Virus record (IMG/VR): IMGVR_UViG_3300021399_000002
Span: 118,656 to 182,655 of that record
Length of the DNA: 64,000 bases
Reading direction: 5' to 3' (one strand)
From: a virus
Taxonomy: Duplodnaviria; Caudoviricetes
The notes under the pieces were generated by a model. The model was not told the origin of the DNA. It searched no databases and saw nothing but the letters and a program-made list of their open reading frames with translations. Positions 18,062-59,977 of this stretch are shown here, one piece after another; position 1 is the first letter of the stretch, and every line of letters starts with the position of its first letter. A program made the position numbers and the translations under genes.

Positions 18062-21000
18062 TTACCTCCTTATTCTATTCTATGCCATTGTTTTACGAGC
18101 TACATTAATAATTTTATCTAGCGCTTGTTCTCCTGCGCGTTGAGCATCGTAATCATTAGCAATCTAAGATACTTGCATTACAACTTCAGCCTTTTCAATA
18201 GTAACTCCATCTGTATAATTATTACTAATAGAAGAAGTATCGGCTAATCCAGTAACGCTATCGCGCCAACTAGTTAATAGAGAAAGTAAGGAATTAGGTT
18301 TATTACTTAAAATTTCATCACGAAGAATAGCAGTTTGAGAAGCATTTAAAACAGCTTCAGGCTTATTCTTTGTGCCATGAAGGATTGCAGGGCCGGTATA
18401 ATCATTTAAACCGCCTTCTTCATACTTTTCCGCATTTGCAGTCCAATAATTAGACTGCCCCTCTTTTGATTTAATTTTTTTAAATGCAGCATCTTCAGCG
18501 TTAGCATATGTTCTACCTTTTCCTTCAACAGAAAATACTTTTCCATTATCCCAATAATTTAATGTAATTTTCCAGCCATGCTCATTATTATTACCTTTAG
18601 TATTACCACTAGTAGCCTCTCCAATCAATCCTCCAGAACCATTAAATGAATAATTCTTTCCATCAATTGCCTAAGTACCAGTAACCATATAGCCATTTTT
18701 ATCAAAGTAATACCAAATACCATTTTCTTGCATCCATTCATTTTGCTTATAACTACCATCAGCATTTTCATACCACCAGCCCTTATCATCCTATTTCCAA
18801 GAGCCTTGTGTAACAGACTTTTCAGCCCTACCAGAAGCAGTACTCTAAGTAGCAGCCGCGGCAGTACTAGTAGTAGTTGTACCATTAATTGTATTGGTAG
18901 CCTAATCTGCAAGTTCAGTATTATTTCCAAGACCAACATTAGTATTATTATAATGATTAATTAAAGTCTCAATTCCTTCAAATCTATTAGCAAAGTCTTT
19001 ATAGGCTTGAGCTTCAAACAAATCATCACGCTAAGTCTTTAATAATTCAGTTGGAGATTTGCCCCAATATTCACTATTATTTTTAGCAATATATGCCGCA
19101 ATTCCTTCTGCATTTTCACCATGCATTATTTCATAAACCTTACTCCATAATAATCCATATTCTTTTTCATACTCTAACATTTCTGTTTCTAAATCAATTT
19201 GCTGCTATAATTTCTCTAATTCATTATCTGAAGCCTGCTGAATTGCATCAATCTATCTCTATTGCTCGTCAAAATAAGCATCAGATTGCTTTTCAGTGAT
19301 CTGCGCCTATATTCCAGCAATTTCGGCCGCGCTTGCGCCAGACCGCTATAGAATACCAAGTTGCCGCTGTAGTTTAGTAAGGTCATCACTCTTTGCCTAC
19401 TAATTATACATATCTTTCTCATTATTCAACTAATCCTATAAGCCATTAATAAGTTTATCGGCGCTATTTTGAATTGCATCTTTAGTATCTTCTAGCTCTT
19501 GTATAGCGCGCTCTCGGCTATCAACCATTGCTTCATATACTTTATTTTCTACTGAAATCTAATTATCTTCAATATCGCGTAATATCTCATTAATTGATTC
19601 ATAATCTGCAAGTATATCTTTCTTTCCTTCTTCTATAGAATCATGTAAAGACTACATTTCTTCTTTATCGGCTTCAATTTTATTCCAGAAGTTTTCAACC
19701 GCGGTTACATAGTCTTCATTCTTCCAATTGCCCTCATCGTCTTTTTCCCATTCAATTTTTTCACCGTTATCATTATACTACATATATTCCTCAAAACGAG
19801 GATCCATAGCAACAATCATTTCATATTGCTCTTGTGCAGTATAATTGGCTTCTCCATATTGATTAGTTCCCATTAATTTAGATAAGTTAGCAAGCTAACC
19901 ATCTTTATATTTTAATTGGCCCGCCTCATCAAATTCATATAAGGAACTAAATGGATAAGCCTGGTCATTTAATTCTTGACGACGAGTATTAAAATACTCT
20001 TCTTGTGAATTAACTAAATCTTGACGAGTGGTTACTGATTGTTCTAATTTATCAAGAGTAACTAGCTAGCTCTAGAAGTAATCTTGTCCATGTGATACCA
20101 TATCAGATTGAATCTTAGAACGAAGTTGCTCTTGATAGGTAATATCTGTTTCTAATTGAGCAATCTTTTGTAGCCAATTATACCATTTTTCAAGATCTTT
20201 TAGGAAAGCTTTATTAGATTCGGAATCGCTTCCTCCACCACCGCCGCCTCCACCGCCAGCTGCGCCAGCGAGATCTTTAGCAGTTAAATCTTTTAATGAT
20301 TGCCACATTGCACGAAGTTGTTTTAGAGAACTTAATGCACTTGCCGCAGAAGCCATAGCTTCGCCGCCATTCCAATTACCGGTCGCAAAAGCTAAAGCTC
20401 GTTCTTCTGAAGTATAAGCTTTACCACGAGTAGAATGCCCATTATTCATTAAGTTGCGAGTCTATAGATGGTTAAATACAATAGCATCATCAGGTAAATC
20501 AACAAATTCAGCGCCATTTTGTCCAGCTATGTAATAGCGGCCACCAGTAACATAAAGCTCAGGGCCAAGTTCACCCATTAATGTACCTTGAGCGAGAGCT
20601 ACATTGCCTTTTGCGCCTGTTACATTACCAAATTCATCTATTGTATCATCACGATTGTTAGAAGAAGTATTACTAACTTCAGTTTTAATTTTCTAGATTA
20701 CGCCACGATTTGCAATTTTAATATTTTCTAATAATGCTGTCTATGTTTCATTTATAACATTGTTAATATTTTGTGTAGCCGGATTAGCTCGAGCATAATC
20801 TCTATTTTCATCTATTTTATTTTGTACTTCATCTTTAGGCGTTACTTGCTATTCTGCTGGAGTATCTGCAGCAACTTCAGCATTGGCTTTTACCTGGCCT
20901 GTAACATCAAGAGTAGTATTATATGCCTATTCTACTTCATAAGCATTAACAAAATTATTCCATTTTTGTTTTAAATCTTCATCATTTTCAGAACCTTTAT

Positions 21001-24000
21001 CAACTACTTTCCATTCTCCATCTACAACTTCTAATACCATATTAGTTGTAACCTATCCTGGAATAGTAATAGATACATTGCTCCTAGTTATTTCAGTATC
21101 AGTACCAGTTTCATCGCCAGTTATATTCTACTAAGTCAATGATTCATAAGCTTTAATCATAGCAACTAAAGCTGGCTAACTATCGGCAGTAACTTCACCG
21201 CCATCTTCAAAATGAGCAGTATACACGCCGCTTTTTACATTATATTCTACAGTAGTATCAATAGCTCCATGATAAGTTACTTCTCCGGATTCTTCAATTG
21301 TATAATTGTTACTTAATAATTCATCAAATTCCGCAGCCGCCATGGCAGAAACAATCTTATCAGTATCATTTTTACCAAATTGAGTTTCTTTTCCATTTAT
21401 AATGGCCTTGTTATCTTTACTCCATGTAATAACTGTTCCTGCAGTAAAGGTAAGGTGCATATCACCAATATCAATATCTCCTTCAAAACCAGTACCAGAT
21501 AATACGGATTTAATAGATTCAAATAAATGATCTAAATCATAATCTCCAGATAAATAAGCTTGATAGAAAGAATTTAATATTGCAGTATATGCTTCAGCGT
21601 CAATATCAATATCTTTTACACCATCTGCAGCATCTTCAAACATCTAACGCATAGTAACAACTTGGCCATTAACTGTTACTTTCATTTCATCTAATGCTTT
21701 AGTTAAATCTTTATTATCTTTAGCACTATCTAAAATTTTCTGTGCAGCAGTTTGAAATTTTTCAGTATAAGTATTAAGTATTTCTATAATACGATCGGAA
21801 TCCTCTGGGTCATATTTAACATCAAATATTTCTCCTAAATCTAAAACATTATCTTTATCGATGTCAATATCACCTAGTTTTTCCATAGCAACTACAGTTT
21901 CAAGTAATTGAATCATACTATCAAGCATGTCAATCTATTCATCAGCTAATGCATCAATACCTTTATCAACACCAGCCGCCATTTTATCTACGCCAGATGA
22001 AAAATCAATACCGATAGCACTTAACTTAACGCCCATCTCGCCAGTAGACATATTCGTTAACACACCAGCCGCTTGTGTTATTAGATCCGCGGCTTGCTAA
22101 GAATTTTCTACTGTCTTTCCACCAATATTAACTGCCGTACCTGAAATCTCCGCAATCTTTCCCATTTCTGTAACAATATTATAGAAATCTTCATAGGCCA
22201 TTTTACCGCGGTCTTTCCCTTTATAACTAGTCTGTTTCATTTTTGCAAATGCATCATACCAATTAGACCAGTAATTTAATGGATTATTCTATCCGCTAGG
22301 AATTTTATTATCCATAAATTTAAAGGAATCATCTTCGGTTGTAGAACGAGCAGCATTAATTTCTTGAGCAAGACTTAATTCTTCTTCTAATGCCGTAATA
22401 CGCTTCTAATTATCAGGAGTTTCTTCTTGATCGCGTAATTGTGATAGTTCTTTTTCAAGACTTACAATATATGAAGTTGTACTACTAATTGATTTAAATT
22501 CATCCTGGGTTTCAATTAATGATTCTTTTAAAGCATCAAATACAATACTACCTTGAATATCATCAATATTTTTAATTACCTAATATAATTCTTTTGCAGA
22601 ATTAGTAGATAATTTTAAACCATCTGCTGTAGTTGTAAAATCTAACTAATGAATCCCATACTAGTCAGCCCATGAAGATAATTTCTAAGCATCCACATTA
22701 CTTAAACTACCACTAATACCGCCACTAATTAATGAAGCTATATCAGCTAACATATCAGAAATTGTATCTGCTAATTCTGCCATCTATTCTGGAATAAGTT
22801 TTCCAGCTTTCGCCGCAGCTTCTGCAGTAGCTTGAATTAATTTAGGAATATCTACAGTTTCATTAAAAACATAAATACCATTCTAAATCTATTCACCATA
22901 AGAGCCAATTACTTCCTTAAGCTTTCCTTCTGGCAATACACTTTCTAGATATGATAAATTAATAGCTTTACCTGGCTTAATTTCAGCTAATTCCTAAATC
23001 TATTCAGCAACACTATCTATAATATTATTAGTATTATTATAGAATTCAGTCATTGCATCGGCATATTCATTACGAAGCTCATAATATTCAGGAGAACTCG
23101 CATCTAAACCTAATGTACCTAAGAAGGCATCAATATCAAAAATACGAATGCCGCCAAAACCTGTTAATCCAACAGTACCACTCTCAACTAAATCTGGCAA
23201 AATTGTAGCTATATTTTGACCATAATTACTATATAGCTAAGCTAAAGTATCAAATGACATATCTGCTGCATTTTCTAATGCTTCTTGAGCATCCATGCGT
23301 TTCTAATCATTTGCAGTCAATAATTTAGCGTAAGCATTATTTAAATCAGATACAGTTGCTCCAGCAGTATTACTCATCTGCTCATAAATAGCAGAATATA
23401 CTTCTACAGCATTAAAGGTTTTATTTACAACGCCGTTGGCATCTACCATTTCTAACTAGCTTAATACCTAACGCAACTCGCCAGTAATGACTTGCCCCTA
23501 AATAATTCCTTCAACTTCACCTAAAGCATCATTCCAACGATTAATAGCACTAGAATAAATTTCAGCTAATTCAGATTCAGTTAAATCAGGTTTAATCTCA
23601 CGAGCTTTATTAACAGCCCTTTCTCCACCTGCCTATAGAGCTTTAATAGCATATGAAGCATCTTTAGTAGCGCTATTTATATCTCTATTAACTGTAGCAT
23701 AATATGTTTCTAAAGCTCTGCCTAATTTATTAACATCATTTTGAGTCCTATCACCAGATAAGAAACTACCAATATCAATATTATTCTAAGCAGCTTTAAT
23801 AGTATTATCTTTAATCCACTAATCAATTTTAGCTTCGGGCAAAATACCCATATTCTTTAACTGTTGAGCCTATGCTTCAATATACTTTCTAATATATTCA
23901 GGGCGCACAGTAAAGGCATCAAGAATATCATCATAATAACTTACATTTTCAATTTGTAAATTTGTACCAAGCATCTAATTATAATTCTCAACAAAAGAAC

Positions 24001-27000
24001 CTAAATCTGCTAAATTATTAGTACCACTAGATAATAAGGACACACCAGTAGAAATATTCTATAAATAAGAATCACCAATCGCGGCAATTTCCTACTAGAA
24101 TAATTCATTAACATCATATCCAACTTGTGCTAATTTCTAATTTAAGCCAGCTAAATCTACTCTATTATGGCCCCATTCATCAGTATTAATAAAGTCTCTA
24201 ATATTAATACCCCAGTTTGCGAATGCAGTCTGGAAAGCGGCGATGGACTCTTCAGATAAATTCTAATAATTAGAAACTAAATCTTGAATAGCATTATATC
24301 TCTAATTCTATAATTCATATTTTAATTTATTATATGCTGCTTCAAGATTGGCTACATCTTCAGCAGTACCATTTTCACGTGCCGCAGCTAAATCAGCACT
24401 TAAATTCTTTAATACTGCTGCGGTTGCTTCCCATTCTTGAGTATATTCGTTAAAAACATACCCGCGTTCACGCATTACCTACTCAGCATTAATAGATTCA
24501 TTTTCAGTTGCAATAGCAAAATCCTAAGCTGCCTGCTAACTTACTTTCATAGCGATAATAGCATTAGTATTAGTAGCAATATTTCTCTTACTCTTAACTG
24601 CTTGCTATGATTCTATAATAGCACGCTTTACAGCTTCATTCTATTCTTTAGAAGCATCTAATGCTAAAATCCAATTGTCTCTCTATACTTCAGAAAGAAT
24701 AGTAAGAGTATCAGTTTCAGCACTTACTCCTAATGCCGCCTTCATTTCAGATGATAAATCATGAATATTAACGGTATCTCCAACATTCGCTCCAGCCAGA
24801 TTAGAAATTTGTGTTTTAATACGAGTATTAACATCACGAGAAGCATTATCACTAATAGTAGCATCAACCCATGCACTATAAGCCGCTTTATATTCTTCTG
24901 AAGCATCATTCCAGCCTCTTCTTGCAGCATATCCAGCAAAATCTTTAATACGAATTTGTCCATAGTCATTGATTTCAATTAATTCATCATTTATTAACTT
25001 TTGAAGTGCCGCATCATAATTATACCGATCCTTGCCATTTTTGTCTTTTCCTTCATAGACGCCAAATATTTCGCCAGCATCAGTATAAGTCTATATTAGT
25101 TCGTCAATACTAAGTGTATTCTTACTTAAAGTTTCTAAACCATTACGTTTTCCTTTATATTTATTATCTAGTCCTAAAGCAGCAATATTATTTAATTGTG
25201 AAATAGTTGCTTCTCCAGTTTCAGCCATCTAATTATATAAATTTTTATAGGCTTCAGCCAATGAGGTGGCAACAGAAACTACAACATTATTTTCAATTGT
25301 AAATCCTGCTTTAGTTAATGCTTCAATATGTTCCGTTGCAACAAAAGAACCAACTTCTAATGAATCTACTAATTCTGCAGCAGCTTGAATAGGAGCAATC
25401 TAAGCTTCATATGCGGTTTGTAGCTCTTCAGTAGTTGCTTCTGGCTTAACACGCTTTAATTCTTCAACTGCCACTGAACCGCCTTTTGATAGAATTTCTA
25501 ATGTAGATTTTGTGTGTTCTTTTGCCCATTCATTGATAGTTGATTCTGAGCCGTAAACTCCATAATCTTTAGCTTTGGTTATAAAATATTTTTGTAAATT
25601 ACTTTTTAAAGTATTAGATTCTCTTACAGTGGCTGTTCCAGATAAGAACTTACTAAAATCTAAATTATCTTTAAACAAAGCATCTATCTAATTCTATATA
25701 TAAGCTTGCTTCTCAGCTTCAGAAGCGAATGTTAAGTTTTCGGCTGATCTTTCAATCATACGACGCATATCATTAGTATCAAGAATCCAAGCATCTAATA
25801 ATGCATCATATATAAATGTCGCGCTTTCACCATTAAATAACTACCCAAAAGCTTTCTAGAAGCCCTATATTTCTACTTGACTTGAAGTGCCACTTACAGC
25901 TAATGAACCGGCTTTAGAAATATTATCAATATAAGAATCTGCGATCGTAGAGATATATTCATCAAAGATTTTAGAGTATTCATCGTCCATGGCTGTTTTA
26001 AACCCTTCAAAATCTTTAATAAACTTATTTCCTAATGCATCCGTACCAATATATTTATCATACTTATTTCCAAATTCTGCTCTAAAATCGTTTAAAGCCT
26101 ATTCACTTATGTTTTCATAAGAATCTAAAACTCCAATTAATGCTTCATTTTTATAATTCTTATTTAATTCAGTTGCAAGAGCTTCTCGTTTCTATTTTAA
26201 TTCACGAATAGTTTGTTCCGTCGCACCAGAACCTGGAGCTTCTGCTTCGGCAATTTGTGCATCAATATCTGCTAAAGTCTATTCTGTCGCAATTAATTGT
26301 TTAGACCACTCATCATATTCATAGCCCTTAGCTTCTGCATATTGTCTAATCTACTCATCATTTATTATGTTTTTATCCAATAGTCCATTATATCCAGATT
26401 TTGTAGCTAGTGACTTCCTATAATCGTCTAAATTAATTGAAGACTAAATAATATTTTCTAAATTTTCACCGCGAGTTCCACGAGAAGAAATAATACTATC
26501 ATTAATGGTTCTATAAACAGCCTATAAAGCTTCTTTTCCTTCGCCTTCATAGCTATCAATATAAGTCTTAAGTAATAATAATAAATTATCACGCAAATAT
26601 TCATTACTAATAGTTATTGTACCATCAACGGCCCCAATTGCTGCTTGCATTTCAGGTGTCAATGAGCTAACATTAATCTCGTCTCCAACTTTTGCAGAAG
26701 ATAAATTCTATAGCTAAGAAGCTATCTATTTACCTTTATTATCTTTCGCACGCTAAGCGATTTGACTATCAATAGTTTCAGTCGCAAAATCTGTAAAGCC
26801 TGCTAATGTTACACCAAATGCTTCAGCGAGCGCAGTTATAATCTATTCAGCACTTGCATTTGCGTCTGCTTCAAGAGAATTAGTTTCTGGATTATATTTA
26901 TAAATACCTTTAAGAGTTTCATCTTTAAATTCATTTGTTTCTTCATTATATAATTCAGATAATGCAATTTTATAAGTATTAGCATAAGTTTCTAATTCAT

Positions 27001-30000
27001 CTAAAGTAATACTTCCATCACTAGCCATATCAGCTACAGATTTAGCTTTTAATACATCTTTATTATTCGCTTCAGCCTAAGCTTTAATAAATTTATTATA
27101 ATCTTCTGCTGAAATTATTCCATTCTTAAATAATGATTCCATATTAGTCTATAATTGTTTGACTAATAATTTAACCATCATAGGATATTTTTTAACATTT
27201 TTATATCCTAACTAACTAGCTAATGCTTCTGAAGCATCACTTAATGTAGTATTATTATTATCTAATAATTCTTCAATTAAAGTAGTATACTACTAAGCAT
27301 TGGTCTGTCTACTCTATTTTTTAATAGTATCACTAATCTTAATTCCTAATACATCTTCTAATGGCTTGAAATTAGCTTCCTTTAAAGCTTCCCAAATTTC
27401 AACTGCTTTTTCCGCGGCTTCGCCGCCAAGAATATTCATATATGTAATAAAACTTTCATATATGGTATCTGATGCAGTTCCACCTGCAATAGCATCAAAG
27501 TCCATTGAAGCAATATATTGTAATGGAGAATTTTGTAAATAAGTCTATAAGAACTCTAATTCTTTTTGATCATATTGATTTAGTGCATCAATAACCCAAG
27601 TATTCCATTCTAAATTTTTATTTTCTGCTTTTTCTTTTTTAAACTAATCCTATAACTATTGTAATGTCTAACTTAAAACATTTTTTTCAGGTTCAGATAA
27701 TCCTTCTAATTTTCCTAATTGTTCAGTAATATTTTCTCCAGTAGAATCAGCAGTTAATTGTTTAATTACTTCCTATACAGAACTATCCTAAATAATTTCT
27801 GCTTGTCTACTGATTGCTTCTAATCTATCATTATTAGCTTCAGTAATCTATCTATATGATTCATCAAGAGCTTCTGAAGTAAGAACCCATTTATTTAAAT
27901 CAGCATTCCACTCAATTAAATTATCGGCTGTTCTATCTTTCTTTTCAGATTTAGCAATAATTTCCTATGCGGCTTTTAAAGCATCAGAATAATCCATTCC
28001 TTTTCCTATATTTCCTAATGCTTTTTCAGCCTCTTCTGCAATTTTAGAAGTTTCAGACATCATTGAAGAGATAGTTAATCCGATATTTGTATAAACTCTT
28101 TCTCTTATTTCTGTTAATTTAGAAACAATATCAGTTAAACCTAATGCTTCAAAATTCTTAATAGCCGTATCAATTGATTCAACATCAGTTAAATCTAATT
28201 CACGAAGTATAGGAGATATATCATGTTGCTAATCATCACTTAATTGTCCAATCTATTGATATAAAGTAGTTAAGCCATTTAAATAATTATCGGCAGCAAT
28301 TGTATAACCTTTATCCATTAATTGCTTGTATTGTGGTAATGAAGATTGCAAAATAGTAGCAACTTCTGCAGTTATGTTATCTTCGGTATTACTCATATCA
28401 AATAGTCGCCATAATTCTGTGTCCAATCCACCAGTATTTAAACTACCAACATAAGTTTTAATTGCATTATATAAATTAGTACGAACTAGCTATAAATTAG
28501 ACTAATAATCTTTTTGTATTGAAGTAATAATATTAGCATTTATACCATGCTCTGTATCAAAATTATGACTAGTTAAAAATTCATTTAATTTTTCAATACT
28601 ACTAATCTATGAATAATTTAAACCAGTAATTAATTCATCCGCTAACCACTAATTTTGATCAATATAAGTAACAAGTTCATTATAGAGAGTGGTTCCTAAT
28701 GTTGTATTTCCCGTTTCAGTCCAATCTACATTTTTTTTATACCTAGATATCATTGAACTAATAAACTATCTATATTGATTTAAATCAATTCCAGAAGTAG
28801 ATTTAGAATTAATTAAAAGCTAATTTTCTGTTAATGATAAAGCTGAAGCAGAAGTAACAGAATCTGTAATAACTTCAATATCATGTTCTGTTTTTAACAA
28901 TCCATTATTAATAAATTCACGAGTGTGCTAAATTGCTTGTACTAAATCGCTCGTACTTAAATTAGCTAAAGTTTTATCTAAATTATCTGCATTAATATTA
29001 GTGATTCCAGTAAGCTATTCATAATTTAAATCTTTATTATTCTCAACTGCTTTTTTTAATAAATTAGAATAATTGGTAAGTGCAATATCTGTGTTAGTTG
29101 CATTATTTAAAATCCAGTCATTTAAAACTGCATTGATTTCTTCCTAATGCTCTTCATATAGCTATTTAGTTTTTTCCTCAACATCCCAGTCATCTATATT
29201 AATTAAATCACCGATTTGTTCTCCTTCATATCCTAAAAATTGCACTGCTCTATTATATGCCATTATTAATGATTCATAAACAGTTCGTCCTTGCTCAATA
29301 CCACTATAACTTTCACTTGGAATAATTTGTTCTCTATTCTTATATCCTTCACTATCTTTAACATATAAATCAAAATTAGCATATATTCTATCAAAAATTT
29401 CATCAGGAGATAAATTAGAAATAACATCTTCAGTTAACTGAATATTGTCAGCAGCCTATAACTCTTTCCAAGCATCTTTTTCAATTAGAATACGCTCTTT
29501 TTCTTTATTTAACGCTTCAACAGTAGATGAAGCAGCTTCTGCACGCGCGTCAGCTAGAGCCAATTCTAATGATTCTAAGGTTATAATCTAATCACCGTTA
29601 ATTTCCATAGCAGATATCAATGCTGGATATGAATCAGCCAACTAATTCATATATTCATGATATTCAGTTAATGCTTCAGCAGATTCATACTATTTAGAAG
29701 ATAACTCATTTAATTTATCATAAGCCTATTGTAAATCATCTACCTTACCTCGATCTAATGTAGCTTCTTGTTGAGCCTTAGTTTCTGCTTTCTCGGCTAA
29801 TTCTAAACGACGGCTTAGACTTACATTAAACATATTAATACCAGAAATTAAAGAGGGTAATGCACTTGCTACAGCTCCGACTCCTATAGCTATAGGATTG
29901 CCGCCACTCATTAGGCCTCCCTAAATACCGCCTGAAATAGCATTAGCAATTGTACCTCCGACTCCAGCCCATAGTCCTGCTGATTGGTCTTGAGCAACGC

Positions 30001-33000
30001 TAGTACTGGCTCCATAATCAGAAGTTGCTTTTACATTTGCTAATGCTCCTGCAGCAGAGAACGCAGTAGAAACGAAGGTTAGTGCTGTACGCGTTTTATT
30101 AGAACCAAAAAGTGCTTGCAGCTTTGTTCCACCCTAGGCCATAATCTAATTCATCTCTGCACTAGCAGCTTGCGCCCAAGTTCTACCAAAAATTTGTCCC
30201 TAACGCTATGCTTCAGAATTTAAAGAAGATAAACTAGTAGATACATCAGTCTTCATCTAATCTAAGCTATTTTGTAATAATACAATAGCTAACTATGCAA
30301 TATTCTTAATAGTAGAAATAATCTATACTCCTAATGCCATGGCCCATATTGGTATATTACCTAAAGCTTTAGGTAAATTATTCGCACCATCAATAACATT
30401 AGTAATAGTGTCTAATATTCCTTTATATAAATCCTAAATTCCAGAGCTAGTATAGAACTCTTGGACTGTTACTTTCATACGCTCTATCTTAGCATCTATA
30501 GAATCCAAAGTTTTTAATGTCTATAATTCGCCAACATCTTCAGAATTATTAGCTAATTCTAATGCTCTTCTATACTCTTCAACATTACCAACCAAAGCTA
30601 AGAAACGAGACTATTGTCTATTACCAGCCATAATAGTTGCAATATAACGTTGAGCATTTTTATCAATAGAATCCCATTTATCGCCTAATTCTAAAATGAC
30701 ATCATCAAAATCCCTAAATTGCCCATTAACATCATGAATACTAATACCAATAGTCTATAAAGCTTTATCAACTCTGTTCAGACTCATTTCTTCCCCTTCA
30801 GAGTCAACCATTTTAGAAGGATCCGATGTCATTTCACCATAACGACTAATAACAGATTTTAAAGCAGTACCAATATTTGTTGCAGATTCACGAGTAACTG
30901 ACACCATAGTAGCAATCATTGCAGAAGTTGCTTCAAAACTTGCACCAACAGCTTCAGCAGACGAAGCAGTTTTACTAATAGCAGTAGCTAATTCTTCAGT
31001 ATCGGATGCCGTATGCGCAGCTAAATTACTAAATACATCGGTTACATGAGCGGCTTCGCTCATTTCTAATTTAAAACCACGCACAGCAGTAGTCATATAG
31101 TCTGCTGCAGTCGCATAATCAATTCCAGCAATACGTGCCATCTTTAAAGTTTCAGTTGTAAGATTCATTACATCGCCTTTATTTAAGCCTTGCTGATAAT
31201 AAATCTATGAAACTTCATAAACGCCCTTAATTGCTACACCATATTGACGAGCAATTTCACTGTAAGTACTAATTTGTCCCCATAAATCATTTTGAGACAT
31301 ATTAGTAACAACAGCAATTTGAGTCATTACTTTATCAAGTTCTTGAACATGAGTTTTCATGTCCTAAATTGCTTTTTTAGTTAAATTTAAAACTTGATAA
31401 AAACCCATCCAACGAGCAACAGCGGATGATACATTGGTTAATGATTTAGAGGCTTTTTCATATTTAGCAGTAGTAGATACATAATTTTCTAAAGCCCTAC
31501 GTGCCTAATCAATCTTATCTTTATCCTATTGCATGCCGTTAGCTAAACCACCATTAAGTAAAGCTAAAGTTGCTTGTAATAAATCCTAAATCTATTGTGA
31601 TAAAGCCTATGCTGCATCTTTTTTACTAGTTAAAGCCGCGGTATCAGCCGCGGCAGTAGCAGTCACAACACCCTGCGCTGCGCCATAATTGCTTGTAGTT
31701 GCCTATAATTGCTAGATCGCACTATCTAAATCCTTTATTTCTGTATTACTAATCTAACTCTAAATCTAAGCAATAATTTGATTAATAGCGCTTTCAACAC
31801 TAATACCATTTTTAATAGTACTCCAATCAATATTAAATGAACGATTAAAAACTGACTAAATTACAGAAGTTATACTACTTTTAAAATCATTTATATTAGA
31901 AATTCTATCTACAGTAGCGCCAGAAACATTTAAAGCATCATTAATTACTGTTTCTATTTTAGACTATAATTCAGTTTTAATCGCACTAACATCAACAGTC
32001 GAAGAATATGTTTGTAATTCTTTAATTAACTAATCAATATATCCCTATATTCCTTTACCTGTTTTAGTATTGACAAAATCATCTTGAGAAGAAAAATTGA
32101 TTAAATCTTTATACTGCTCTTTAATTTTATCAATTAATGGTAAACGATTCTGCCAATTTGTTCTACTACCATCAGGATTTTTCTACATCTTTTTAATATC
32201 AGTTAAATCCTAAATAGCTTTAGAAACATCTGCTTTTCTAGCATTGGCAAAATCTATTAAAACCTAAGTTGATTTATCAATACTTTCACGCTATGTATCA
32301 AATAATTTATTTGTACTCGCGCCCTACTTAATCTATAAATTTAAATTTAATTGTTTTAATGCGTCATCACCCAAATATCCTTTATAAACATCCGCTAGCT
32401 AAGTACGTAAATTATCCGCGCCAGCCTTAGTTAATGTTCTATTAGCTATTTGAGCATATTCACTAGAACTCACAATTGTATTCATAATAGAATCTTTATT
32501 AATCTATGGATTATTAATAAAATTCTATAAATTTTTTAAATTCTATTGTAAATCTGCAATTTCTTTATTTGCTTTTTCAATTTCAGTAGTTAAATTATCA
32601 GAAAATTCTGTAAAAGTAGTCTTAGATAAATCAATATTTAATTCTTTCGCCGCCTACCTTACTTTTCCAAAATCAGCATTATTTACATCATCAAATACTT
32701 TGCCTATTTTTCCAGATTCAATCCTATCAATCTCTCGCTCAAGTCCTTTCAAATCTTTAGTTAACTGAGAAAACTACCCTTGTATATTATTAGGTAATTT
32801 TAAATCATTTAAATTTAAAGTAGAAAAGGAACTTACAATCATTCCAATATGATCAAATACTTTATCATAATCCTATAGAAATTTTTTCGCTCCTGCACTA
32901 GTAGAGAATGAAGTAGCCATTTCTGAACGCAATTTGTTCACTTGGCGTAAAGCAGCATCTAATTCTTTAGTAATATTTTTCATAGAAGCAGTATTAGGCG

Positions 33001-33100
33001 AAACTGCATCCTAAAGAATCTACCTCAACTATTGAATCTAATTCTAAGCTCCCTATAAACCTAATGATACCTATATCTCTAAAGTATTGTTCGCAGCCAT
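18062..33100 (-). CDS. Giant tape measure protein, ~5,012 aa (very TAG-rich), with C-terminal cell-wall-binding repeats
   Basis: Ten ORF-track fragments between 18164 and 31168 share one frame; TP901-type TMP core (IYYQQGL, AADYMTTA, IGTALKS, AGNRQ[Q]SRFLAL); SD AAAGGAG at 33100; TAA at 18062 followed by the next SD. Not every codon was checked for TAA/TGA. Confidence 0.85.
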
Positions 33101-33124
33101 TCGTATTCATCTCCTTTTCTCGCA

Positions 33125-50412: not shown

Positions 50413-50703
50413 ATGATTACAGCACAGGAAGCAAAAAAGAATGTTGAACTTTATGAAGTTACCATTTTTCAGAAGACTCTTGAGCGTGTTATGACTCAAT
50501 TAGAAAATATTAGTACCATTATCGAATTTCATTCTAAAAATGGAAAAAGGCAAATTGTCTTTACTCCTTATGATAAATCCCATTTCCCTTCCTCTGAAAT
50601 GTTAGATATGGCCCATAAAATTTTCGATGAAATTTTAAAACGAAATGGTTATGATGTAATCGAAAATGACTATCAGAAAAATTTCCTAAAAGTCCAGTGG
50701 TAG
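50413..50703 (+). CDS. Hypothetical protein ending in TAG (stop in terminator loop)
   Basis: SD GGAGG; MITAQEAKK start; TAG lies in loop of AAGTCCAGTG/CACTGGGCTT stem. Confidence 0.75.
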   Translation: MITAQEAKKNVELYEVTIFQKTLERVMTQLENISTIIEFHSKNGKRQIVFTPYDKSHFPSSEMLDMAHKIFDEILKRNGYDVIENDYQKNFLKVQW

Positions 50704-50829
50704 CACTGGGCTTATTTCATTTTCAAATTTAGGTGTCAAACACTTAAAAATTTCTCTTGCATAATTCCCAATTCTATGATACAATTTCATTGTCCAAAGG
50801 GGACAAAGAAAAGAAAGGGGAATTTCAAA

Positions 50830-50997
50830 ATGAAAACCTATTACTGGATGCACAAAGAATATGGACATCTTGTTCCCGAAACCGAACTATATAAAGACGC
50901 GGACGAATTGGGTTATGATGATATAACAGACCCTTGCTCTGTTGAATATGGAAACTTTTCCCTTTACTACGAAAAGACATCGATTGTAGTAAAATAA
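50830..50997 (+). CDS. Small hypothetical protein
   Basis: Cassette gene; start MKTYYW after SD AAGGGG. Confidence 0.7.
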   Translation: MKTYYWMHKEYGHLVPETELYKDADELGYDDITDPCSVEYGNFSLYYEKTSIVVK

Positions 50998-54578: not shown

Positions 54579-54731
54579 TTATCTGTTTTGAATTATCTCG
54601 TCCACCGCCCTTCGGTGACCGCCAAAGGCGGTTATTCTATTTCGGTATTTAAGTGTTAAACACCTAAAAATATGCGTTGACTTCTATCCCGTAATATGAT
54701 ATTATAATGGTGTCGAAAGGAGGAAGGGTAG

Positions 54732-54866
54732 ATGATTCCACCGGGTTAGACTTCCCAAGGTTACGGGTTGGTACCGGACTGGCGGGATTCATACTTGTCG
54801 CAACCAACTGCCGTCAACCTGCCGCGGCGAAGCAGATTGATGAAATTGAGCCAAGTAGCGGACTGA
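54732..54866 (+). CDS. Candidate 44-aa read-through microgene (MIPPG-TAG-TSQG...), or ncRNA
   Basis: SD AGGAGG 8 nt before ATG; TAG at codon 6; next stop TGA lies in the cassette terminator loop. Confidence 0.45.
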
Positions 54867-55070
54867 TCACCCGCTATTTTTTACACTGTCATTTAGGTGT
54901 TAAACACTTAATTTTATTACTTGCTTTTTAATATAAATTATGGTAATATAATCTTGCGGAAAGGAAGAGGGACTTCAATCCGAAGTGAGCAACCCCATGG
55001 ACTAACCCACCAAGCCCTCAAAGGCCACGAGGATGGAGTTGTGTAGCTCAAATAAAATATATTGGAGGAT

Positions 55071-55310
55071 ATGTTCATGACCATGATGATTGAAAAGAAG
55101 CTGAGAGATTTTAATTTCTGGGGCGGAGCTGCTACAAATGCCGCAAAATTAACTTATGATGAGTTAGACCAGCTGGAAGATATCTATGAAAGCAACGATC
55201 CTGATTATACCCCCACTGTATCTGAAATCAATGATGATATGTGGTTCGGCTTTGAAGCAATTTGTGAATGGTTGGGACTTGATTATGAGGAAGTGATGGC
55301 AAGGAAGTAA
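55071..55310 (+). CDS. Acidic phage hypothetical protein (FxFWGGA..EINDxxWF..EWLG family)
   Basis: SD GGAGG; stop in terminator loop. Confidence 0.75.
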   Translation: MFMTMMIEKKLRDFNFWGGAATNAAKLTYDELDQLEDIYESNDPDYTPTVSEINDDMWFGFEAICEWLGLDYEEVMARK

Positions 55311-55846: not shown

Positions 55847-56065
55847 CCCCGGTTTATTTCATAATAGAATTTAAGTGTTAAACACCTAATTTTCTTTATT
55901 GACTATAATCCTATAATATGGTATGATATCAGTGTTGAAGGACGGGTTCAAGAGCATGAACCTTAAAGCAATTAGCAGAACGCAATTGTTTGAAAGTAGC
56001 CACCACGCGCGAGGATATATGAACTGAAGCGAAATTGCCGCCCTTATCTAATTCTGAAGGGAGTA

Positions 56066-58174: not shown

Positions 58175-58445
58175 TTCTCCATTTCAATCATTTAGGTGTT
58201 AAACACCTAAACTAAGTAATTGACTTTTCATCAAATTTGAGTATAATAATAATTGTTCCGAGGGGAACAAACCTCAGATGAAGGCGCCAAATGTTTGAGA
58301 GGATCCCCAAAGAACAAAAAAATAACAGATTTAATGCTTGACAAAAAGCAAAAAATCTGATATAATATAATCATCCCAAAAGGGAAAACAAAAATTGTGC
58401 AGGGTGGTCTGCCGAAACTAAACCACTGAGAAAAAAGGAGTAAAT

Positions 58446-59543: not shown

Positions 59544-59619
59544 TCCCCTTTTGATATGTTAGGTGTTTAACACCTAAACTTAATACTTGATTTTTGTTAA
59601 AATTATGTTATAATATAAT

Positions 59620-59847
59620 TGTTCTTAGGAACAGCAGACATTCTTGCCCATACAGCAGTCTGGTCTTAGTGTTTTAAGAACTAAGGCGGTTTCCGATAGG
59701 AGCTTCCGCTGAATAAATGAAAAAGGCATTATTGACTCTTCGCCGGGGTGGACAGGCTTGTTCGGAAAAGGAGAACTAAAACTGGAGCCATCATAAAGGG
59801 TGTGTATGTTGCCTTTATGGAAATTGGATTTTATTATATCCAATTTC
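59620..59847 (+). ncRNA. Candidate structured non-coding RNA cassette
   Basis: Own operator and promoter, several hairpins, no SD-led ORF, terminal hairpin before next operator. Confidence 0.4.
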
Positions 59848-59977
59848 ATTTTCCTACTTTAAGTGTTAAACACCTAAATGTAGGTATTGCTTTTTTCCTA
59901 ATATGTGATATACTATCATTGTTCCGAGGGAAGAACGGAACAAGAAATAAAAACGAAAAAGAGAGAGGAAAAAGAAA

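Follow-up and report, generated by a model that had tools for sequence, protein, structure and literature searches.

The cassette described here occupies positions 54650-54882 of the window, by which is meant the whole stretch of 64,000 nucleotides that was analysed. This stretch forms the right-hand 64 kb of a virus record of 182,655 bases (182.7 kb) with direct terminal repeats. An earlier note on this DNA had placed an operator, a promoter, the sequence AGGAGG and the codons ATG ATT CCA CCG GGT TAG in the cassette, and all of these are present (Table 1). Transcription start was placed near G54712 from the spacing of the promoter. The terminator hairpin TAGCGG/CCGCTA spans 54856-54876 with a 9-base loop and is followed by TTTTTT. 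A promoter and a terminator of its own also flank the element in relatives. With its own operator, promoter and intrinsic terminator, the element is predicted to be an independently transcribed RNA.

Table 1. Features of the cassette and their positions in the window
Feature	Position	Strand	Description
Operator dyad TAAGTGTTAAACACCTAA	54650-54667	+	Common to early cassettes; also upstream of the element in relatives
Sigma-70/sigmaA-type promoter	TTGACT 54677-54682, 17-base spacer, TATTAT 54700-54705	+	Extended -10 TG; 10/12 matches; conserved in relatives
Putative small RNA, about 171 bases	54712-54882	+	Predicted start to T-tract; covariance model R1 and covariation
5' module GTCGAAAGGRGG...[A/G]TGA[G/T]TCCACCG	54712-54743	+	32 bases, near-invariant; most conserved part of the family
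Shine-Dalgarno sequence AAAGGAGG	54716-54723	+	8 bases ahead of the ATG; weak pairing with TTCCACC possible
Mini-ORF ATG ATT CCA CCG GGT TAG	54732-54749	+	M-I-P-P-G-TAG
Closing helix GGGTTAG/TTGAGCC	54743-54749 and 54846-54852	+	TAG codon in the 5' strand; weak, least secure helix
Hairpin domain 1	54753-54787	+	Outer TCCC/GGGA enclosing GGTTACGG-GTTGGTA-CCGGACT (54759-54780)
Hairpin 3, CGTCAACCTGC-CGCGGCGAA-GCAGATTGATG	54812-54842	+	
Intrinsic terminator	54853-54882	+	Stem of about 9 pairs, loop ACTGATCAC, T-tract; TGA 54864-54866 in the loop

The cassette is part of an early array. Between 49.2 and 63.6 kb of the window there are about 28 sites with the operator dyad (55 strand-wise matches), where 0.25 are expected, and every dyad is followed by a promoter and then by a small gene with a short leader. 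Several neighbouring loci are of separate interest. The cassette at 59560-59860 has an operator and a promoter and no ORF led by a Shine-Dalgarno sequence, and it is thus a second candidate small RNA. In two further cassettes (window 55872-56065 and 58193-58445) unusually long leaders of about 150 and 220 bases stand ahead of the ORFs, and additional RNA elements may lie in them. A leader of about 100 bases (54955-55060), which lies between the promoter and the gene at 55077, is about 98% identical in the relative L099, where the flanking protein is only 62% identical. L009, L010 and L102 have no such leader, and by this pattern it resembles a leader RNA that was inserted or is mobile; its folding energy is ordinary.

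Distribution of the element and its 5' module

Members of the family were found by exact-pattern scans, by following a neighbouring protein, by a pattern for the conserved 5' end and then by a covariance model, R1. By exact pattern the element turned up in several contigs from metagenomes and in two further phages of about 189 kb, the neighbouring protein led to more distant copies, and the 5'-end pattern returned 16 viral loci. Model R1 gave 19 distinct full-length members and one cut copy, with a single copy in each phage record. The clade is one of TAG-recoded gut phages of 180-190 kb. Two relatives that carry a homolog of the tRNA(CUA) described below, and that are 98% and 78% complete, do not have the element, which indicates that it is dispensable for the clade. 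Megablast and blastn searches gave no match in a phage collection from which the record itself may have been withheld. Rfam gave no match in the window at gathering thresholds, and at E values up to 10 the window and six relatives gave only scattered matches at chance level. Some candidates were rejected as chance. Two pattern matches in bacterial genomes (Herbaspirillum and a Rhodospirillaceae MAG) were not matched by model R1, L017 was a chance pattern match, and the results of a 14-mer scan were likewise mostly chance.

The Shine-Dalgarno sequence, the position of the start codon (ATG or GTG) and the codons CCA CCG are kept in 19 of 19 members, and the distance from the Shine-Dalgarno sequence to the start codon is 8-9 bases across the family. 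In all 19 members AAAGGAGG begins 5 bases from the predicted transcription start and the Pro-Pro pair forms codons 3-4. The mini-ORF has the pattern M/V-[S/I]-P-P-x(1-2)-stop (5-6 codons) in 14 of the 19, where the stop is TAA in nine and TAG in five. Over the family the stop codons are TAA (9), TAG (5) and TGA (4). Four members have longer mini-ORFs of 11-20 codons, and L099 has no stop before a TAG at codon 24. A TAG that ends the mini-ORF is confined to five members that form the window's subgroup. In these, codon 6 is TAG in 5/5, and it is doubled in 2/5 variants (the L009 group and L010). As compared across the members, the sole conserved coding feature is a predicted M/V-[S/I]-P-P with 1-2 further residues behind a strong Shine-Dalgarno sequence. 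The Pro-Pro pair that the earlier note had singled out is real and invariant in all 19 members; what is kept is M-[S/I]-P-P and not the PPG-UAG that the note had proposed as a stall site. A 5' hairpin over the Shine-Dalgarno sequence has a folding energy of -5.1 kcal/mol, which is no better than that of shuffles.

The two most distant members (L136 5565-5737 and L137 5043-5215) keep the 5' module, with a MIPPPNSRGNI mini-ORF, and have a different body and terminator. Since they share the module but not the body, the 5' module may be portable between RNA cargos.

Structure and covariation of the predicted RNA body

The covariation analysis proposed as a check in the earlier note was run. Sequence itself is kept in the 32-base 5' module and in the terminator loop, and the middle of the predicted RNA varies in its letters but retains two hairpin domains by compensatory changes. 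Across 20 matched sequences pairing holds in 90.6% of the cells. Of 46 pairs, 34 changed on both sides, compared with 20.8 +/- 2.3 in shuffles and 6-16 with slid partners; these counts come from alignments fitted to model R1 and therefore lean towards structure. The result from a 9-sequence alignment agrees with that from the 20 sequences. RNAalifold, applied to a plain MAFFT alignment of the close set and thus independent of the fit to R1, gave the same helices. When the divergent members were aligned by MAFFT, only part of the structure was recovered. Single-sequence folds of all 19 members, likewise independent of the fit to R1, have unrelated stems at the same places, flanked by GCC...GGC or CCC...GGG.

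The clearest covarying helices are hairpin 3 and the terminator. Hairpin 3 (helix 7) has 11 pairs, of which 10 changed on both sides, and 91% of its cells are paired. In the terminator stem (helix 8) eight of nine pairs changed on both sides and 98% of the cells are paired. Hairpin domain 1 has compensatory changes in L099 (CTG/CAG and TCC/GGA) and wholly different stems in L102, L101, L133 and L129, where they occupy the same place. In the closing helix (helix 2) 82% of the cells are paired and three pairs changed on both sides. The terminator loop CUGAUCA (TGATCA; window 54862-54870) is kept in 15 of 19 members while the stem around it covaries, and from this pattern the loop may be a site for binding or kissing and not just part of a terminator.

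The window copy folds with a minimum free energy no lower than that of shuffles (z = +0.76). No antisense target of at least 12 bases was found in the phage genome, where the matches were at most 11 bases long. Three resemblances to known RNAs were considered and rejected. The loop GUUGGUA, with its UGG, could mimic an anticodon loop, and the loops differ in relatives. The sequence GAUCACC resembles the 3' end of 16S rRNA over 7 bases only and without CCUCC. The likeness of CGGACUG to tRNA(CUA) is a 7-mer at chance level.

Genetic code of the phage and the read-through frame

The special status that the earlier note gave to TAG in this genome is right, as the phage is TAG-recoded and has its own tRNA(CUA). 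Open frames of at least 100 codons cover 60% of the genome in the standard code and 90% if TAG is read as sense, and the longest frame with TAG as sense has 5,014 codons. This frame is a single tape measure-like gene on the minus strand (window 18062-33106) that contains 167 TAGs in frame and, towards its C-terminus, a choline-binding repeat; its counterparts in relatives have 4,856 and 3,227 codons. The late genes in general are rich in in-frame TAG. In the early array none of the 37 ORFs led by a Shine-Dalgarno sequence has an internal TAG, and their stops are TAA (28), TGA (8) and TAG (1). The relatives of the phage are TAG-recoded as well. In the published model early genes use the standard code and late genes are recoded (bioRxiv 10.1101/2021.08.26.457843). 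The split between early and late genes in this genome fits that model, so the question of a recoding sensor is well posed.

ARAGORN identified 24 tRNAs in the genome, including a tRNA(CUA) of 86 bases with a long variable arm. No tRNA or tmRNA was found within the window, and no release-factor domain was found encoded in the phage genome. The suppressor tRNA(CUA) (G000:C1:55157-55242, outside the window) has a type II shape and a G before CCA, unlike tRNA-Gln, and has homologs in L117, L118 and L119, with lengths of 85-88 bases. The residues that orthologs have in the place of TAG are Q (13), S (11), E (10) and K (9), which are also one-base neighbours of TAG. Inside the tRNA array, also outside the window, ARAGORN reported a 72-base tRNA-like gene with a two-base 'anticodon' in a 6-base loop (G000:C1:64854-64925). 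A Gram-positive (Firmicute) host is suggested by the choline-binding repeat in the tape measure protein, the extended -10 promoters and the strong Shine-Dalgarno style. The only early ORF with a TAG stop (50701-50703) lies within the span 50413-50997 of the window. Its frame runs on from this stop through the next operator and promoter into the ORF at 50830-50997, and late suppression of this TAG would fuse both ORFs.

The earlier note had read the cassette as a 44-residue gene that is opened by read-through of the TAG and that acts as a suppressor sensor or as a trap for RF1. Its description of the frame was accurate. With TAG read as Q, translation from 54732 gives 44 residues and ends at the TGA at 54864-54866 in the TAGCGG/CCGCTA loop. 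Comparison with homologs does not bear out the coding claim. The note had looked to conservation of the frame beyond the TAG and to dN/dS. In-frame TAA or TGA codons and a frameshift occur after codon 6 in relatives, an outcome that the note itself had named as refuting its reading. In the close subgroup nonsynonymous codon changes number 8-13 and synonymous changes 2-4. The five near-identical variants have 12, 12 and 10 variable sites at codon positions 1, 2 and 3, respectively, with no third-position bias. The frame reaches the terminator-loop TGA in four of the five, and a 3-base deletion preserves it; in L010 a TAA stands at codon 31 and a single base is deleted beyond it. In the family as a whole, 10 members have further in-frame TAA or TGA codons between the mini-ORF stop and the terminator loop, and 14 of the 15 members that keep TGATCA have one between the start and the loop. 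The TGATCA is found in all three frames relative to the start codon and thus is not conserved as a stop codon.

In the window copy frame +2 is likewise open through the whole element. By our own estimate from stop-codon frequency, the chance of an open frame of 38 codons is about one third. The openness of the 38 codons after the TAG is no more than chance. A six-frame check across the 19 members found no frame that stays open, the minus-strand ORFs contain no conserved frame, and a PHROG search with the 44-residue product gave no match. A 74-residue frame from the ATG at 54707 was rejected; this ATG lies within the -10 box and relatives lack it, and stops interrupt the frame in L009, L102, L101 and L105.

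A small RNA reading, its rivals and known systems

The element is best explained as a structured early phage small RNA whose long frame is noncoding, a reading to which we give a probability of about 0.72. The element itself is conserved clearly beyond chance, with one copy in each genome of related phages. The best reading is that it represents a new small RNA family with no match in Rfam, rather than a recoded protein gene. The structured RNA that the earlier note had kept as its fallback is thus the reading that covariation and the noncoding frame favour. The RNA would act early, as a trans-acting or a decoy RNA. The activity would lie in its folded body and in the loop CUGAUCA, which would bind a protein or an RNA of the host or the phage during takeover.

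The 5' module may have a different role. It would load a ribosome less than 20 bases from the 5' end, and this ribosome would pause on the Pro-Pro pair and shield the RNA body from 5'-to-3' decay, as Bacillus 5' stabilizers do. Most sibling cassettes start with a small 5'-terminal hairpin, and here the mini-ORF may replace such a hairpin as the 5' protection. In B. subtilis a ribosome stalled near the 5' end, or a strong Shine-Dalgarno site there, stabilizes the downstream RNA with its body untranslated, and RNase J1 is the decay activity that such 5' stalls block (PMC3997798, PMC5737220). SPP is a documented stall motif in the absence of EF-P (PMC12407103). The invariant synonymous positions in AGT CCA CCG fit a role at the RNA level at least as well as they fit translation, so the stall-stabilizer step is a conjecture. 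We regard ribosome loading and pausing as a way of 5' stabilization as tentative, somewhat less probable than an even chance.

Several other explanations of the cassette were weighed against the small RNA reading. In one of these the RNA is gated by the genetic code, in the window's subgroup only. RF1 would end the mini-ORF at the UAG early in infection and the RNA would stay folded; later, at the early-to-late transition, tRNA(CUA) would allow read-through to the UGA of the terminator loop, which would either unfold the RNA and turn it off or yield a peptide of 43-44 residues. The phage has the parts for such a switch, in that it is TAG-recoded, has its own tRNA(CUA) and encodes no release factor. 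TAG is nearly missing from the early array, yet it is codon 6 in every subgroup member and is doubled in two variants, and the frame reaches the loop TGA in four of the five, with the 3-base deletion preserving it. For the near-ban on TAG in the array and its presence in 5/5 subgroup members, a coupling to the code switch is kept as a small chance. However, the five subgroup sequences are close kin and thus amount to nearly one observation, one of them (L010) has the TAA at codon 31, codon-position bias is absent, and an open frame of this length arises by chance often enough. In addition, the relative G004 ends its mini-ORF with TAA and is TAG-recoded (open-frame coverage 0.70 in the standard code and 0.94 with TAG as sense), and so is G003, the genome of L099 with its first stop at codon 24 (0.69 and 0.91). 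Since both are recoded, the element does not need the TAG. The TAG also sits in the closing helix, where pairing can explain part of its local conservation, and in the L009 group the outer helix of hairpin 1 gains length from the second TAG. The best reading is that the TAG of the subgroup is one of several acceptable stop codons. The earlier note's main reading, a genuine 44-residue protein made only by read-through, is highly improbable. It would agree with the strong Shine-Dalgarno sequence and ATG, with a frame that is open to the terminator-loop TGA as in sibling cassettes, and with a genome that reads TAG as sense, but it is at odds with the stops or shifts that break the frame beyond the near-identical subgroup and, among its members, in L010, with the even spread of variable sites over codon positions, with the absence of a PHROG match and with a TGATCA loop that is kept in all three frames.

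A regulatory role for the next gene is unlikely. In a leader-peptide attenuator, a ribosome on the Pro-Pro codons (sensing Pro-tRNA or EF-P) would set the terminator and so tune read-through into a gene of the 55077 family. A leader ORF is present, namely the mini-ORF of 5-6 codons with its invariant Pro-Pro (CCA CCG), and a gene of the 55077 family lies within 600 bases downstream at 13 of 19 loci. As read from the sequence, the terminator's 3' arm has a possible pairing partner in TGGCGGG (54779-54785) of the subgroup. However, this alternative pairing, which would make an antiterminator, is limited to the subgroup and is missing in L102 and L101, which are without GCGGG, and two stable hairpin domains separate the mini-ORF from the terminator. 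In every case the gene downstream comes with an operator and a promoter of its own. Synteny is also loose: another cassette often lies between, or the gene is upstream or absent. It is also very unlikely that the element is a functionless, decaying remnant of a protein cassette. Its layout of promoter, Shine-Dalgarno sequence, start codon and terminator is the same as that of coding cassettes, and two relatives are without it; on the other hand, 19 diverged lineages retain it and have compensatory pair changes, and a dead gene would lose the invariant 5' module and the conserved terminator loop.

The small RNA reading removes a tempting false positive, namely an ORF with a Shine-Dalgarno sequence and apparent read-through in a phage that truly is TAG-recoded, which comparison with relatives identifies as noncoding. 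In its place is a small RNA family that is supported by covariation, has no Rfam match and is predicted to be under the same early promoters as about 30 host-takeover cassettes. The invariant 5' module with its Shine-Dalgarno sequence, start codon and Ser/Ile-Pro-Pro is unusual for a small RNA, and it leads to the testable idea that a paused ribosome may serve a phage RNA as a protective 5' cap. If the TAG of the subgroup did gate the RNA, regulation by RNA would be linked to the code switch, and this would be the first RNA with an activity gated by stop-codon reassignment.

The predicted RNA shares features with several known systems. In SR1/SR1P, SgrS/SgrT, RNAIII/hld and Spot 42/SpfP a translated short ORF, a structured regulatory body and an intrinsic terminator are found in one transcript, and the peptides of these RNAs have 15-43 residues and are conserved as peptides. 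In contrast, only M-x-P-P is kept in the family described here, over mini-ORF lengths from 5 to at least 23 codons, and the phage genome search described above found no base-pairing target. The sequence GGGTTGGTACCGG in the window copy recalls the T-box sequence, and the UAG of this copy could be imagined as a specifier. However, the loop of a hairpin holds GGGTTGGTACCGG, and relatives have GTTAGCA, AGTGCA or GGCACG in its stead. A T-box riboswitch was rejected, as RF00230 gave no match in the window and six relatives even at E values up to 10, the UGG loop is not conserved and there is no conserved antiterminator.

The stop-codon recoding timer of Borges et al. (bioRxiv 10.1101/2021.08.26.457843) resembles this genome in its early genes that are compatible with the standard code, its late genes full of TAG and its encoded tRNA(CUA). 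The element differs from that timer in that it is not a gated gene, its long frame would be noncoding, and the TAG is replaced by TAA in a recoded relative. The Gram-positive 5' stabilizers (the ermC leader, cryIIIA STAB-SD and hbs) share with the element a strong Shine-Dalgarno sequence at most about 10 bases from the 5' end (PMC3997798, PMC5737220). A very short ORF with a pause motif, SPP (PMC12407103), and a long untranslated body downstream are further points of likeness. The known cases protect mRNA, whereas here a predicted structured RNA without an ORF would be protected, and the stall would depend on Pro-Pro and not on an antibiotic.
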